A DNA stretch of 64,000 nt. Origin: Phyllobacteriaceae bacterium. GTDB taxonomy: Bacteria > Pseudomonadota > Alphaproteobacteria > Rhizobiales > Rhizobiaceae. Made by a program: the position numbers and the translations under genes. The stretch is taken from positions 1,136 through 65,135 of the forward strand of contig JAYTVD010000126.1 of assembly GCA_043744175.1 (NCBI GenBank). Reading direction: 5' to 3'. This document shows positions 3,142-52,080 of this stretch, piece after piece. A model generated the notes under the pieces. The model was not told the origin of the DNA and searched no databases. It saw only the letters and a list, made by a program, of their open reading frames with translations. Position 1 is the first letter of the stretch; each line of letters opens with the position of its first letter.

Positions 3142-3226
3142 TATGCAAGCCGTCCCCCTACGGCGTTTTATCACTCCCGCTATACCTATAGTTCAGAACA
3201 TGAATGTAAACTGAAAGAGCGTCACA

Positions 3227-4099
3227 TTGCATAAATTGGCAACAGTTTTGGCACGTTTTACCCAAGTCTTGGTGGCGCTTGCCATCCTCGCTACCATTTA
3301 TGTTGTCGTTCAAGATTCATCTCCGCTTAAAGTTGTACAACTTGCAGGCATGACGGACAGGATCAACGAGATGTCCCAAACATCCGTGCCGCATAAGCGA
3401 TTGATGGAAAACGACATTTATGCCGCCAACGCGGCGCTGCTGGCCAAGGTGGAAAGTGGCGCAGAGCTTACCATTGATGAGAGCAAGACTTACCGCAGCC
3501 TCATTCAATCCACCCTGTTTCAGAAGCAAAAAATTCTGTCGCTGGTGGATTCATCTCTCACTGTTTTGCCCGACGCGGGCATGGATAAAATGAACAATGT
3601 GGCAGTGCTGGGCATCGCAGGAAATCACGACCACCACGATACCTCCGCCTCAAATAATTTCAGCGCCATGCTGTATGAACTGAACAAAGTCGAGAGCGCC
3701 GGTGGGTTGTTTGCACCGCTCATTCGCATCAAGAACGCGAACGCTGCTTATAAGGATTTGCTCGATATTTTGCCGCACTTAAGCGTGGCTTTGCAATCCA
3801 TCGACCTGCCACTGGCCCCGCCAGCCAACTGGCCGGATACTGATCTTGGAGCCAAATTCAACGCCGTACTGGTGGCGTTCAAACTGGCACAATTTTCACC
3901 CGTCAATTCGCCAGCCTACGTCGCCGCACTTCATGCCGGACTGGATGCCTATGATGCGCTGGTGCTCGCCGTGCAGGCGCGAATTGTTGCCAATACCAAC
4001 AGCTTCGAGCGCCATATTGCAGGCCGCTTTATGTCCACGCAAACGCTGGCACCATCACTGGATATGAGTATCACCATCCGCTTCCCGCGAACAAACTAG
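3227..4099 (+). CDS. hypothetical membrane-anchored protein
   Basis: 290-codon ORF with a TTG start and one N-terminal hydrophobic helix (VLVALAILATIYVVV). No recognisable motifs. Divergent from the LuxR gene. Confidence 0.45.
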   Translation: MHKLATVLARFTQVLVALAILATIYVVVQDSSPLKVVQLAGMTDRINEMSQTSVPHKRLMENDIYAANAALLAKVESGAELTIDESKTYRSLIQSTLFQKQKILSLVDSSLTVLPDAGMDKMNNVAVLGIAGNHDHHDTSASNNFSAMLYELNKVESAGGLFAPLIRIKNANAAYKDLLDILPHLSVALQSIDLPLAPPANWPDTDLGAKFNAVLVAFKLAQFSPVNSPAYVAALHAGLDAYDALVLAVQARIVANTNSFERHIAGRFMSTQTLAPSLDMSITIRFPRTN

Positions 4100-4112: not shown

Positions 4113-4463
4113 TCACATCTTAAAATCGAAATGCTTGCGAATGGTCTCTTCGATCTTCCACAGACCCTTGAAATCAGCCTCCACCACAAAAGCATCGCCC
4201 GCCTTAATATGAACAGGCGTGCCGCCATCCGGCGTAATCGTCATCTTGCCTTCAATGACATGCACAAACTCATAGGCCGAGTAAGTGGCATGATAAGTGC
4301 CGGGCGTCGCCTCCCAATAGCCGGACATCATCTGGCTATCATCAGACGTATGCAGCACCCACGTCTTCATGGCTGGATTGCCTTCAACAACAACCCAGCC
4401 ATCCAACGTGGCGCTAGATGGTTCAACACTGGTAAGCGGGCCTAATTTGACGATGCTTTGCAT
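4113..4463 (-). CDS. cupin domain protein (DUF861/cupin_3-like)
   Basis: 116 aa. The EFVHVIEGKMTITPDGG...IKAGDAFVV pattern is typical of small single-domain cupins. It is the last gene of the minus-strand catabolic operon. Confidence 0.7.
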   Translation of the reverse strand: MQSIVKLGPLTSVEPSSATLDGWVVVEGNPAMKTWVLHTSDDSQMMSGYWEATPGTYHATYSAYEFVHVIEGKMTITPDGGTPVHIKAGDAFVVEADFKGLWKIEETIRKHFDFKM

Positions 4464-47622: not shown

Positions 47623-49560
47623 CTAGCTTTGGAGTTTTGGCTCCATACCGGGCTCTTCGCCACCCTTGCGCGGCTTGGCCTTACCGGCTCCAGCCTTGGG
47701 TACTGTGGAGCTACGCGCAGGCGCACTGCCTTCATCATCATCGCGCTTTGGCTGAATGCCCTCAAGCATTCCACGAAGCTCATCGCCAGTCAGCGTTTCA
47801 TATTCAAGCAAGGCTTCCGCAATCATCACGAATTGCTTCTTGTTCTTGGTAATCAGGCGGCGGGCTTCGCTCTCGCCCTTTTCAATGAGCAAGCGCACTT
47901 CCTCATCAATCAGCTTAGCGGTCTCATCCGACATGTTGGTCGATTGCGATACCGAATGGCCGAGGAACACTTCCTGATCGTTGGCACGATAGCGCACACG
48001 GCCAAGCTTTTCCGACATGCCCCATTCCATAACCATTGAGCGGGCAAGGCTGGTCGCCATCTGAATATCGCCGCTGGCACCGGTCGTAACTTTATCTGCA
48101 CCGAAGGTAATAATTTCTGCTTCACGCCCGCCAAACAACATGATGAGACGGGAAATCGCCTTCTCATATGTGAGGTTATAGCGGTCAGATTCAGGCAGCG
48201 TCATCACCATGCCCAACGCACGGCCACGGGGAATAATCGTCGCTTTGTGGATCGGGTCGATGGTCTTGTTCAAAAGCAGCGCAATAATCGCATGGCCCGC
48301 TTCGTGATAGGCGGTATTCTTTTTCTCATCCGCCGTCATGGCAAGAGATTTGCGCTCAGCGCCCATCATCACCTTGTCTTTGGCATCTTCAAATTCGCTC
48401 ATCGTCACCAAGCGGCGGTTACGACGCGCAGCCAAGAGTGCAGCTTCGTTCACAAGGTTCATCAAATCCGCACCGGAGAAACCGGGCGTGCCACGAGCAA
48501 TAATTTTCAAATCCACATTGGGCGCAACCAAAACATTGCGCACATGCACTTTCAAAATCTTCTCGCGGCCATTCACATCCGGATTGGACACAACAACCTG
48601 ACGGTCAAAACGACCTGGACGAAGAAGCGCAGGGTCCAGCACATCCGGACGGTTAGTCGCGGCAATCAAGATAATGCCTTCATTGGCTTCAAAGCCGTCC
48701 ATTTCGACCAGCAACTGGTTGAGCGTCTGTTCGCGCTCATCATTGCCGCCACCAACACCCGCGCCGCGATGGCGACCGACAGCATCAATTTCGTCGATAA
48801 AGATGATGCATGGCGCATTTTTCTTCGCTTGCTCAAACATATCGCGCACACGGCTCGCGCCAACGCCAACGAACATTTCCACAAAGTCGGAACCAGAAAT
48901 CGTAAAGAACGGCACACCAGCTTCGCCCGCAACGGCACGAGCAATCAAAGTCTTACCAGTGCCGGGAGGGCCAACGAGCAGAACGCCGCGCGGAATCTTC
49001 GCGCCAAGCTTTTGAAACTTCGCTGGCTCACGCAAAAATTCAACGATTTCTTCCAAGTCTGTCTTGGCCTCGTCAACACCTGCCACATCGGCAAATGTCA
49101 CCTTGCCATGCGCTTCGGTGAGCAGCTTAGCCTTGGACTTGCCAAAGCTCATCGCTCCGCGCCCGCCACCCTGCATCTGGCGCATGAAGAAAATCCAGAC
49201 GCCAAGAATAATGACCATTGGCAGCCATGAGATCAAAAGACCAATAAGCGAGTTAGAGCCATCCGAAAGCGGATGCGCAGAAATAACAACATTCTTGGCT
49301 TCCAAACGCTTCACGAGATCAGCATCGCCGGGCGAATAGGTCGAAAAGCTGGCGTTATTATCGTTGTAAGTGCCGATAATCCGGTCACCGGCAATTTCAA
49401 CTTTCTTGACCTTGCCCGCATCCACATCATCAAGGAACTTCGAATATTCAATATCCGCCGTCGCGACATGCTGCGTCGGGCTTTGGAACAGGTTGAACAA
49501 TGCCACCAGCAAGAGCGCAATAATCGCCCAAAGCGCAAAATTTCTGTAATTCGGGTTCAT
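47623..49560 (-). CDS. ftsH: ATP-dependent zinc metalloprotease FtsH
   Basis: Start set at [17 protein letters not shown]. Walker [12 protein letters not shown] second region of homology, and Zn site HEAGHA. Confidence 0.95.
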
Positions 49561-49662
49561 GCCTGTATCCAGTCTAAAAAAGTACCCAGCCAGATGGCTC
49601 AAGAGTTGAGTGTAAGATAGGTGCGAATAACGGCGTTGCCAAGGCTTGCGCAGCCACCTGCG

Positions 49663-51108
49663 TCAATTCTTGTCATCAAAGTGAATCGGAGCTTCAGGCA
49701 AAGCGGGAAGACCTGCCATTTTTGTCAGAGCCAACGCCATTTCAAGGTCAAACAACGGCACCAAATCCGGCCATGGGTTGAGAAGGCGGCGAACTGAGGG
49801 CGCTGATTCTAGCATGGGATGAGTGGCGCGTGCGTGAGCGAGGAGTGAGGGAGGAGTGAGCGCAGCCACCATCACCCCGTCATTCCGGGGCCGCGTAGCG
49901 GAACCCGGAATCCAGAGCGCCGTGCCCGAAGATGAGGTAAACAGGGAGCTTGCCTTATGGACGTTAACAGCTCCAACCTTTTCATCACTATTTTCACCGC
50001 CAGAGCTCTGGATTCCGGGTTCGGCTTTGCCGCCCCGGAATGACGGCCCTGTGGGGGCTGTCGCCACTTCCCGATAAAACCCGTCAAACGCCGCCCGCTT
50101 TGCTGCCTCCAAAACCTCACGCTTTTCCCGCAGCAAATACACACCGTCCTTTCGGACATCAATCAAAGCCCCGCTGGCGGTCAGTCGTAGCGGCACCTTG
50201 CGCGTTCCTGCCTTGAAGTCAGCCAGCCCTTGCAAGATGGCGTCAGCGCTAGATGGTTCTGCCATCCAGCCTGCGCCACCAGCAAAGGCAATCAGCGCCG
50301 TCAGCGCGTGAACAGCCAATGGCTCGTCGCCAATTTCGGACGCAACAAAAACCAGCCCCGGCGTGACTTCCTGCGCAAACCGCTCAATCAACCTGGCCCC
50401 GTTTTGACTTGCCCCGTTTCGCCGGGCCGCGGCCTCGCCTTGCACCCGCGCCAGCATCGTCTCATCCAGCGCAGTTTGCCGCACCGCCACCCGCTCATAT
50501 TTCTCATTGGTGTTTGAAGGGTCGTCGATCCAACCAATGCAGCGACCCTTAAGATAATCGCGCAAGGCAGACCGCCGTACATGCAACAATGGCCGCGCAA
50601 ACCAAACAGGTTCGCCACCGTTCAAATCATTAAATGCTAATGTACAAGGCGAGATTCCCGCCAGCCCGGCATTGGCCGTCGAGCCATCTCGTGCCATCCG
50701 CATCGCCACTGTTTCAATCTGGTCGTCAAACGTGTGACCCGTCAAAACCAACGTCGCACCTGATCTCGCCGCGGCCTCGCTTAGCAATGCGTACCGCGCA
50801 TTTCGCGCCGCCGATTGCACGCCAGTCTCCGGTTTTGATCCCGACCAGCCGCTCGTTACATGTTCGATGCCATTCCGGGCGCACAGCGCACTCACTTCGT
50901 GCGCTTCGCGACCGCTTTCCGGGCGCAGTCCGTGGTCGATTGTAATAGCAATAATGCGCGGCGCGATGGACAGCGTTTTGAAATAGTCTTGCAGCAAAAA
51001 TAGCAGCGCCGTGGAATCACTTCCGCCCGAAATGGCAACCGCAACGGTTTTCATTTCGCCAAAATCAAAGCCGCCAAAAATCTCATCCAGCGGCAATTGC
51101 ATCGTCAA
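49663..51108 (-). CDS. tilS: tRNA(Ile)-lysidine synthetase carrying an in-frame palindromic insertion
   Basis: PP-loop VAISGGSDSTALL. 481 aa, including about 57 codons contributed by the element at 49877..50046. Confidence 0.85.
   Translation of the reverse strand: MTMQLPLDEIFGGFDFGEMKTVAVAISGGSDSTALLFLLQDYFKTLSIAPRIIAITIDHGLRPESGREAHEVSALCARNGIEHVTSGWSGSKPETGVQSAARNARYALLSEAAARSGATLVLTGHTFDDQIETVAMRMARDGSTANAGLAGISPCTLAFNDLNGGEPVWFARPLLHVRRSALRDYLKGRCIGWIDDPSNTNEKYERVAVRQTALDETMLARVQGEAAARRNGASQNGARLIERFAQEVTPGLVFVASEIGDEPLAVHALTALIAFAGGAGWMAEPSSADAILQGLADFKAGTRKVPLRLTASGALIDVRKDGVYLLREKREVLEAAKRAAFDGFYREVATAPTGPSFRGGKAEPGIQSSGGENSDEKVGAVNVHKASSLFTSSSGTALWIPGSATRPRNDGVMVAALTPPSLLAHARATHPMLESAPSVRRLLNPWPDLVPLFDLEMALALTKMAGLPALPEAPIHFDDKN
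49877..50046. mobile_element. palindromic (MITE/RPE-like) element of about 171 nt inside the tilS reading frame
   Basis: Outer arms CCGTCATTCCGGGG / CCCCGGAATGACGG and inner arms GAACCCGGAATCCAGAGC / GCTCTGGATTCCGGGTTC are exact reverse complements. The tilS frame stays open across it. Confidence 0.75.
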
Positions 51109-51111
51109 ACA

Positions 51112-52080
51112 TCAGCAACCGGCGTTGCGTTGCTCGGCAGAAACACGGTCCAAAAGCGCCGCGCTTGCCTTCGGATATTTCTTCACAACCTGCGCAAAGG
51201 TAGCGCAAGCCACATCCTTATTATCCAGCGCCGCGAGCGAAACACCAAGTTTCAACAGCATATCAGGTGCCTTCTTTGATTTCGGAAAGTCCTTCTGCGC
51301 CGCCAACAAAACTTCGGCCGCCTCGCGGTGCCGATCTTGCGCCGCCAAAGATTCGCCTAGCCAATAGCGGGCATCTGCCGTCTGCGGGTCAGTCGGATAT
51401 TGTTCAATATGCTGACGGAACGCCTTTTCCGCTTCCGGATATTCCCCTGCTAAAACATGGTCATAGGCAGTTTTATACAACTCTTTAGGATCACTGGCAT
51501 CGCCCAGTGTTGCCGTGTCAGTGCCGTCCGCCGGAGCTAGCTCGGCACTACTTGCAACAGGATCTCCATTGGCATCAAATGTTACGGTCCCCAAATCTTT
51601 CGGGCCCTTGCCATTCTTTGTGGCCACTTCGGGAGCATCCGCATTTTGGTCATTGGTAATCGCATCACCAACCGGATCAGCGGGTGCCGCATCTGCCGGA
51701 GCAGTCGCAACATCAGTATTGCTCGGCTTTTGCTTCACACTTCCCTGCTTGGATTTTTCCAATTCCTGAAAGCGGAATTCATTGTCTTCCTGCATCTTGC
51801 GCACTTGTTCCTGCATTTGCAGGATCTGGAAGTTCAGCTCTTCCACTTTGCCACTTAGCAAGCGAATTTGCTCTTCAAGCTGCTGCGAATCCGCATTTTG
51901 TGCAACAAGAACAGGTACTTGCGTACCCACTGCGCGCTGTGGAACGGGCACAAATTTATCGCCCGTCACCTCAACACCAAACCCAGGAACGCGGGCAGAA
52001 TTATCAACTCCGCTCGCCACAACCCCGGCTGCGCTACTCAAAAGCAGCGCTGTTGCCGCCAAAACTGTCTTCAAACGCAT
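51112..52080 (-). CDS. cpoB: cell-division coordinator CpoB (YbgF), coiled-coil plus TPR
   Basis: Signal peptide, coiled coil (QLEEQIRLLSGKVEELNFQILQMQEQVRKMQEDNEFRFQELE) and C-terminal TPR repeats. Lies downstream of pal. Confidence 0.85.
   Translation of the reverse strand: MRLKTVLAATALLLSSAAGVVASGVDNSARVPGFGVEVTGDKFVPVPQRAVGTQVPVLVAQNADSQQLEEQIRLLSGKVEELNFQILQMQEQVRKMQEDNEFRFQELEKSKQGSVKQKPSNTDVATAPADAAPADPVGDAITNDQNADAPEVATKNGKGPKDLGTVTFDANGDPVASSAELAPADGTDTATLGDASDPKELYKTAYDHVLAGEYPEAEKAFRQHIEQYPTDPQTADARYWLGESLAAQDRHREAAEVLLAAQKDFPKSKKAPDMLLKLGVSLAALDNKDVACATFAQVVKKYPKASAALLDRVSAEQRNAGC

Follow-up and report, generated by a model that had tools for sequence, protein, structure and literature searches.

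A head-to-head dimer of CGTC-tagged REPs within the tilS coding sequence of an uncultured genus of Hyphomicrobiales, probably a tolerated insertion

The gene tilS, an essential gene for tRNA modification, contains a palindromic element that is read through in frame in a 64,000 nt stretch (positions 1,136–65,135, forward strand, of contig JAYTVD010000126.1, assembly GCA_043744175.1) from a Phyllobacteriaceae bacterium, hereafter the window. This element is a head-to-head dimer of repetitive extragenic palindromic sequences (REPs) with a CGTC tag, similar to those designated CGTC-1, and the family to which it belongs is already described and not new. With a probability of around 0.82, we interpret it as a selfish repeat whose insertion was tolerated in a permissive linker of the TilS protein from an uncultured genus of the Hyphomicrobiales.

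Results

Structure of the palindromic element

A first-pass annotation of the window, made from the sequence letters, had described a single palindromic unit of about 170 nt within tilS, resembling a MITE (miniature inverted-repeat transposable element). The arms that it pointed out are exact reverse complements: the outer arms are 14-mers (CCGTCATTCCGGGG, at 49877–49890 in the plus strand and 50033–50046 in the minus strand) and the inner arms are 18-mers (GAACCCGGAATCCAGAGC, at 49901–49918 in the plus strand and 50005–50022 in the minus strand), with two matches of the inner 18-mer against 0.11 expected, a number reached in none of 100 dinucleotide-preserving shuffles. The whole inverted repeat exceeds the extent noted at first, with arms of 56 nt (49863–49918 and 50005–50060) that are 82% complementary. 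The palindrome is, however, not a single unit: it is composed of two 37-nt hairpin units, arranged head-to-head and with their tags facing outward, around a spacer of 94 nt, and the dimer measures 168 nt from tag to tag. The features involved are:

49863–50060, no strand: full imperfect inverted repeat, comprising the REP dimer plus around 14 nt of weakly complementary outer flank per side
50009–50045, minus strand: REP unit 1 (5′ in the tilS sense), CGTC-ATTCCGGGG-CGGCAAAGCCGA-ACCCGGAAT-CCA, encoding (P)SFRGGKAEPGIQ; found with a relaxed pattern search
49915–50008, minus strand: spacer of 94 nt separating the REP units, encoding SSGGENSDEKVGAVNVHKASSLFTSSSGTA
49878–49914, plus strand: REP unit 2 (3′ in the tilS sense), CGTC-ATTCCGGGG-CCGCGTAGCGGA-ACCCGGAAT-CCA, encoding LWIPGSATRPRNDG
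49663–51102, minus strand: tilS (tRNA(Ile)-lysidine synthetase), 479 aa from the ATG at 51102

Each unit consists of the CGTC tag, the stem arm ATTCCGGG(G), a loop, the arm CCCGGAAT and a CCA tail. Pairing of ATTCCGGG(G) with (A)CCCGGAAT holds at 8 of 9 positions in both units of the window, resulting in stems of 8–9 bp that begin with AT, and the loops (CGGCAAAGCCGA and CCGCGTAGCGGA) span 12–13 nt, each with its own mini-stem of 4 bp. The tilS frame reads REP unit 2 as the reverse complement of its plus-strand form. The single strand in the tilS sense was predicted to fold with −119.8 kcal/mol, as compared to −80.5 ± 4.5 kcal/mol for shuffled sequences (z = −8.8), and segments of 48 nt containing single arms also folded by themselves (−23.3 kcal/mol for the arm of unit 1 and −19.8 kcal/mol for the other). 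A search of the element against Rfam did not retrieve any family, the only match being to a plant miRNA hairpin far below the threshold.

Assignment to the CGTC-tagged REPs

The CGTC-tagged REPs contain an unpaired CGTC tag, stems of 8–9 bp starting with AT and a CCA tail, and occur mostly as head-to-head dimers with spacers of 20–100 bp, mainly in Alphaproteobacteria (Di Nocera, De Gregorio and Rocco, 2013, PMC3733652). The tilS element resembles the CGTC-1 REPs in its tag, in the AT at the start of the stem, in its CCA tail and alphaproteobacterial host, and in being a head-to-head dimer with a spacer (94 nt) of the published size. The tag directly precedes the stem in both units of the window and is conserved in the orthologues, except for a CGTT in locus L006, and both units end with the CCA tail. 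They are also alike in that CGTC-1 REPs are occasionally intragenic and in frame; such intragenic REPs are documented, among others, in tRNA synthetase and tRNA pseudouridine synthase genes, and uvrA genes are recurrent hosts (PMC3733652). Conversely, the loops of CGTC-1 REPs are of 4–5 nt, as opposed to the 12–13 nt with a mini-stem found in tilS; the reported dimers encode 20–30 aa, whereas the single tilS dimer encodes 57 aa; and tilS is not among the reported host genes. The supplementary list of hosts, from which tilS is absent, includes a CGTC-1 dimer in a methyltransferase gene of Pseudoxanthomonas spadix that encodes SFRGEAVEPGIQ (PMC3733652); SFRGGKAEPGIQ in tilS derives from an identical type of unit read in the corresponding frame. 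A loop of 4–5 nt is given as canonical (Table 1 in PMC3733652), together with CGTC-1 REPs of Bradyrhizobium showing other loop lengths, long-loop variants among them. Because of these variable loops, and because the unit encoding SFRGEAVEPGIQ is filed under CGTC-1, loop length is descriptive, and not defining, for the CGTC REPs.

The first-pass annotation had compared the element to the Rickettsia palindromic elements (RPEs), and this comparison turned out to be better than an analogy: RPE-6 was assigned to CGTC-1 and RPE-4 to CGTC-4 (PMC3733652), and the tilS arms fit the superfamily that contains both. RPE-1 to RPE-8 are, like the tilS element, palindromic repeats in frame within housekeeping genes, where they are expected to give an extra surface peptide; also as with the RPEs, the host open reading frame (ORF) is preserved in tilS, being open in four lineages, and there are orthologues free of the insert. 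The RPEs differ in host lineage and in sequence, their link to the tilS unit being only through the published classification. Additionally, they colonised many genes in Rickettsia, whereas for the tilS family one host gene is known here and the units are otherwise essentially intergenic.

REPINs, as put forward by Bertels and Rainey in 2011, are reportedly REP doublets that form hairpins and are mobilised by REP-associated tyrosine transposases (RAYTs). Like the tilS element, they comprise a pair of inverted REPs that, together with the spacer, can form a single long hairpin, and they lack target-site duplications. However, REPINs are of the GTAG type, have a cognate RAYT and conserve the spacer among copies, whereas the tilS element has a CGTC tag, the spacers of its family are unrelated between copies and there is no reported link to a RAYT; for CGTC REPs in general, no linked transposase is reported (PMC3733652), nor is one flanked by CGTC units known from the literature. 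In-frame bacterial MITEs, such as those of Coxiella burnetii (PMC5896051), are also small and non-autonomous, have inverted ends and can add peptide segments. Classical MITEs, on the contrary, derive from insertion sequences and make target-site duplications, and we could not find any direct duplication beyond chance at offsets of 0–11 nt in 57 dimers plus the tilS copy, so the MITE-like character proposed at first was rejected. A REPIN was likewise rejected on the basis of the spacer, since that of tilS was unlike every spacer in the loci sampled and dimers of similar size had also unrelated spacers. Given its unrelated spacers and lack of target-site duplications, therefore, the element behaves like a REP dimer, and not like a classical MITE or a conserved-spacer REPIN.

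Distribution of the REP units in other genomes

We scanned reference genomes, one per species, with a pattern of the unit. At least 120 loci were listed, all of them from genera other than the source, and the figures of this paragraph refer to the loci listed. They belong to Methylobacterium/Methylorubrum, Bradyrhizobium, Microvirga, Mesorhizobium, Phyllobacteriaceae, Rhizobiaceae, Parvularcula and some Beta- and Gammaproteobacteria. Genomes of Methylorubrum subtropicum and Methylobacterium spp. contributed several loci each. Together, the loci contain at least 197 units, essentially intergenic. These form 57 head-to-head dimers, three tandem pairs and no tail-to-tail pair, with spacers of 13–101 nt. 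The exact 37-mer of REP unit 2 is also present in Methylobacterium sp. Leaf456 (L124), and the loop of this unit, CCGCGTAGCGGAA, appeared verbatim four times among the sampled units. Dimers of 148–175 nt with an inner GAGCG/CGCTC extension, which is common to the tilS dimer, were found in Mesorhizobium, Allomesorhizobium, Phyllobacteriaceae and Rhizobiaceae. Just 5′ of the CGTC tag there is a weak family-wide preference for ...ACCC[T/A]C[C/G][C/G], and we consequently discarded a conserved outer-flank motif or target site.

A search of the plasmid collection with the arm gave matches in Methylobacterium replicons, one of these matches being an intergenic head-to-head dimer, with an unrelated spacer, located between two ABC-transporter genes. 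The idea that the element represents a family comparable to the RPEs was, thus, correct in that it is a dispersed, multi-copy repeat in other genera, although this family had been described before.

Other occurrences were observed in the collections. Protein P0121 (231 aa, protein library) is a spurious ORF across two consecutive head-to-head dimers whose spacers and flanks are nearly identical; therefore, whole dimers were duplicated together with their spacer in at least one genome, in contrast with the unrelated spacers seen elsewhere. Several contigs from metagenome-assembled genomes titled Klebsiella pneumoniae (L020, L083, L105) and Bordetella parapertussis (L045, L084) contain an REP unit of alphaproteobacterial type, and these are likely mislabelled or contaminated bins. 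Also, the viral collection yielded one REP unit each in L012 (1933–1967) and L013 (7091–7127), which could be host DNA in prophage-type contigs.

The element as a segment of TilS

The mechanical ORF at 49663–51108 (minus strand; 481 aa) starts with a TTG at 51108, two codons before the ATG, and contains a PP-loop domain (PF01171, E = 2.4e-43 in a Pfam profile search); the product of tilS in the window is 100% identical to the 479-aa library protein P0001. Its identity as TilS is supported by sequence, with matches to TilS entries 3a2k and 1ni5 in the PDB, and by fold, with Foldseek matches to 3a2k, 2e21, 2e89, 1ni5 and 1wy5. The frame crosses the whole dimer without a stop codon, and the translation of 49876–50046 (minus strand) is a 57-residue peptide identical to that quoted in the first-pass annotation.

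An AlphaFold model built from 104 TilS sequences (mean predicted local distance difference test, pLDDT, of 83.8; predicted template modelling score, pTM, of 0.84) placed the insert at residues 353–409, with pLDDT values lower than 50 at residues 352–398 and 400–412 and almost no secondary structure. Around 335–350 columns, corresponding to the first ca. 345 residues, superpose on the solved TilS structures 3a2k, 2e21/2e89 and 1ni5, which comprises the catalytic domain (NTD) and the second TilS domain (CTD1), and the C-terminal module (residues ca. 418–479) is well modelled and conserved among Rhizobiales. From the low pLDDT at residues 352–412 and the extent of the superposition, the insert is modelled as a disordered excursion between CTD1 and the small C-terminal module. 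The possibility of a loop raised at first thus agrees with the prediction. Its initial placement was right as to preceding the C-terminal region and wrong in setting the insert directly after the catalytic half, because it follows CTD1. In other bacteria, the TilS domains past the catalytic core contact the tRNA body and the acceptor stem (PMC11947777).

Allele states and history of the insertion

We aligned 15 TilS sequences, eight of them from other Rhizobiales. The full 57-residue segment is present in the query and in P0002, P0003 and P0004, and it is absent from the eight sequences from other Rhizobiales, where the length of the linker is variable, as well as from two close relatives (empty alleles, P0005 and P0007) whose TilS is 79–81% identical to the query elsewhere. 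The alignment confirms, therefore, that the segment is an insertion. Additionally, P0006 is a half allele with an in-frame deletion of around 41 codons, which keeps the last ca. 20 residues and retains the 3′ REP unit. Nearly all the other TilS in a wider list of homologs are of ca. 400–460 aa, as compared to 479 aa, and the net difference in length between full and empty alleles is 150 nt (50 codons).

In a rooted neighbor-joining tree of TilS, from which the linker was removed, full alleles appear on both sides of the deepest split: clade A contains P0004 (full) and P0006 (half), with bootstrap values of 87–92, and clade B contains the window, P0003 and P0002 (full) plus the two empty alleles. 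Since full alleles flank the root of the genus tree on both sides, a single old insertion followed by loss or replacement is favored, with the direction of change deduced from the tree. Closely related populations, all from metagenomes of project BUSI22-1, thus contain between them the three allele states (full, half and empty); related assemblies are GCA_043717855.1 and GCA_043776635.1.

The comparison of loci L004 (full) and L010 (empty) revealed a mosaic: tilS is 96–100% identical between them outside a tract of ca. 700 nt at the insertion site and 76–92% identical within it, while their cpoB genes are only around 84% identical. This pattern appears to indicate that allele states have been exchanged by recombination; because L010 is a gapped metagenome scaffold, a strain-chimeric assembly is an alternative. 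A run of N at positions 3367–3466 of L010, within tilS and flanked by a duplicated stretch of about 50 nt, is a scaffolding gap, which leads to the 5′-truncated gene call of P0007. We attributed to this gap, with its duplicated flanks, the extra 150 nt seen in tilS from L010, which were thus not considered further.

At the same point of the linker, the filler sequence of the empty alleles contains a hairpin, found in L001 at 2845–2865 (CTCCCCGC-AAGAG-GCGGGGAG) and in L010 at 4351–4371. This GC-rich hairpin was not repeated elsewhere in the DNA of the genus examined, and the proposal that the filler is an excision footprint was unsupported (shuffle p = 0.17–0.24); the hairpin may represent an ancestral target, a footprint or mere coincidence.

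Sequence constraint on the insert

The ratio of nonsynonymous to synonymous divergence (dN/dS) was 0.33–1.3 for the insert and 0.11–0.31 for the rest of tilS. The spacer is only 60–63% identical across the deepest split of the genus, and its divergence at first and second codon positions is 0.43–0.47, vs. 0.15 in the rest of the gene, which shows that its peptide is unconstrained at the protein level. The REP units, in turn, are 76–100% identical among orthologues. Tests of third positions against the flanks were not significant (p = 0.2–0.6), except for the 3′ unit in the pair formed by the window and L002 (p = 0.043); we thus rejected a clear synonymous-site constraint on the arms. Likewise, pairs have been lost from the stems of L004, L006 and L008 with no compensatory changes, 6 to 8 of the 9 pairs being kept. 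Judging from these comparisons, constraint at the nucleotide level on the REP units, or their conversion by other copies, is possible. In the four full alleles the gene frame is open and the element has an equal length of 169 nt, with no indels, and the downstream C-terminal module is under purifying selection (dN/dS of 0.17–0.25).

Rarity of in-frame locations

Among 140 sampled elements, 30 lay in open frames that extended 60 codons or more to either side. These were not accepted as real in-frame hosts: 10 of the 14 longest did not contain any Pfam domain, and the remaining long frames, judged by translation alone, resembled antisense frames of high GC content or contained the unit upstream of a recognizable protein. 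An exhaustive HMMER search, in which the 57-aa peptide was compared to 1.84 billion representative proteins, retrieved six matches at E ≤ 0.001, of which four were short ORFs or an N-terminal extension spanning dimers and another was a 1,734-aa protein with 17 matched stretches. The match P0124 (150 aa) is a C-terminal fragment of UvrA, matching UvrA in the PDB with E of about 1e-50, and contains the REP peptide WIPGSASRPRNDG in frame just before the last ATPase segment and a second REP peptide in the C-terminal tail. It is possible, from its sequence, that this uvrA gene is another in-frame host of the same REP family, which fits the published remark that uvrA is a recurrent REP host. In-frame positions within real genes are, therefore, rare for the CGTC REP family, yet with precedent. 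A word-indexed protein search with the 59-aa insert peptide produced no matches and is uninformative, because it also missed TilS itself.

Genomic context of tilS

The genes adjacent to tilS are:

47623–49602, minus strand: ftsH, directly downstream of tilS and in the same strand; from the ORF list
51112–52080, minus strand: gene for a cpoB/ybgF-like protein with tetratricopeptide repeats (TPR), which ends the tol-pal cluster and lies upstream of tilS; from the ORF list

The order tilS-ftsH is repeated in relatives, where FtsH domains were found with Pfam, and their syntenic genes upstream of tilS show Pfam TPR matches. A motif scan did not reveal promoter- or terminator-like sites within the REP element; promoter-like sites at 49745–49718 and 49642–49614, outside and downstream of it, are candidate ftsH promoters. 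In L006 (GCA_043717855.1), an additional gene of the Abi_2 family (3189–3908) occurs between a thioesterase gene and tolQ, and it is absent from the other syntenic loci.

An antisense ORF of 73 aa (window 49856–50077, plus strand) crosses the element, and a gene caller could list a hypothetical protein there. Its arm peptides, PSFRGRVAEPGIQ...LWIPGSALPPRNDG, are nearly those of the tilS frame because the element is palindromic.

Discussion

These results are best explained if a CGTC-1-like REP dimer was inserted, in an ancestor of the genus, into the variable linker that follows CTD1 of TilS, with mobilization assumed to occur through a hairpin of single-stranded DNA or an HUH-type mechanism. 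The gene would have stayed intact, because the frame crosses the dimer without a stop and the net difference of 150 nt equals 50 codons, and the element would be translated as about 57 extra residues forming a disordered loop. Related lineages would later have kept it whole, lost half of it in frame, or ended without it, suggesting that the insertion was tolerated and not needed. The first-pass annotation left as alternatives that the inserted peptide was tolerated or functional; both the empty and half alleles and the relaxed spacer peptide favor the former, and the evidence for any function of the insert is weak.

Several observations weigh against a tolerated selfish insertion. The literature does not know a mobilizing enzyme for CGTC REPs. 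The anticipated copies are numerous in related families of bacteria, but there was no unit outside tilS in ca. 169 kb of source-genus DNA (the 64-kb window plus ca. 105 kb from ten loci of relatives), so that activity of the family in the source genome is unproven. The open frame is by itself weak evidence, since 21% of spacer shuffles also keep it open, and translation through the segment is deduced from this frame. The empty alleles do not correspond to full alleles minus the element, with 48–51 nt between anchors as opposed to 198 nt in the full alleles, and their filler forms a GC hairpin of 8–12 bp that is not significantly similar to the element; consequently, tree parsimony is the sole basis for the polarity of gain and loss. 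Lastly, synonymous divergence (dS) is lower in the insert (0.15–0.44) than in the remainder of the gene (0.49–0.99), and the window and L002, which belong to different clades of the genus, have 3′ REP units identical at 37 of 37 positions, with 78–80% identity in the flanking gene; pure neutrality predicts neither of these observations.

The low dS and the identical 3′ unit, with its p = 0.043 at third positions, are compatible with an exapted cis-acting element, that is, with a REP pair kept in tilS for a function at the nucleic acid level, such as the stability or processing of a tilS-ftsH mRNA, a pause in translation after CTD1 and before the C-terminal module, or a gyrase- or IHF-type DNA site as for other REPs. 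The very stable predicted fold, the retention of exactly the 3′ unit by the half allele and the persistence of the element through a genus-level radiation point in the same direction. Nevertheless, we consider this explanation unlikely: close relatives have empty alleles, the other third-position tests show no significant deficit of divergence in the arms relative to the flanks, the stems of three loci have lost pairs without compensation, there are no promoter- or terminator-like sites and no Rfam family, and the low dS in clade B may reflect a recombination tract or conversion by other copies. Similarly improbable is that the element is a domesticated relic, with few or no other copies in the genus and with its hairpins, the 3′ one above all, held for their RNA or DNA structure in cis; if true, a selfish palindrome would have become a regulatory structure within the coding sequence of an essential gene.

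Recruitment of the 57 residues, for instance as a flexible tether or an additional tRNA contact, is much less probable. The insert lies between two tRNA-facing modules and its arm motifs (SFRGG.AEPGIQ and LWIPGSATRPRNDG) show approximately the average conservation of TilS, with divergences at first and second positions of 0.14–0.25 vs. 0.15. However, dN/dS is at or above 1 for the 30 residues encoded by the spacer, the entire segment is modelled as disordered, sister lineages lack half or all of it, and intergenic copies produce the same motifs when read in the same frame, indicating that these derive from the DNA repeat. There is even less reason to believe that the segment is not an insertion, or that it is an artefact, be it an ancestral palindromic linker, an assembly chimera or a tilS pseudogene. 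In favor of this, linker length is hypervariable across TilS as a whole, and the assemblies behind the window and its relatives are of the metagenome type, with L010 being a gapped scaffold. Against this, the same 37-nt units are found in the intergenic DNA of many genera; four species-level lineages, assembled independently, share the insertion site, and the insert diverges roughly in step with the gene; and the ORF is intact, with its downstream region under purifying selection.

In the tolerated insertion of a REP dimer, neither the type of element nor the mechanism is new. What is new is tilS as a host gene, the size of the segment contributed by one dimer and the existence of three segregating allele states. 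Insertion in tilS extends the list of RNA-modification genes hosting CGTC or GTAG REPs, for which truA, truB and tRNA synthetases were reported earlier. It is also a clean and datable natural experiment, in which an essential enzyme tolerates a selfish palindrome, and the sets of whole, half and absent alleles are suited to testing the cost or contribution of REP peptides and hairpins, as well as the tolerance of TilS to changes in the length of its linker.

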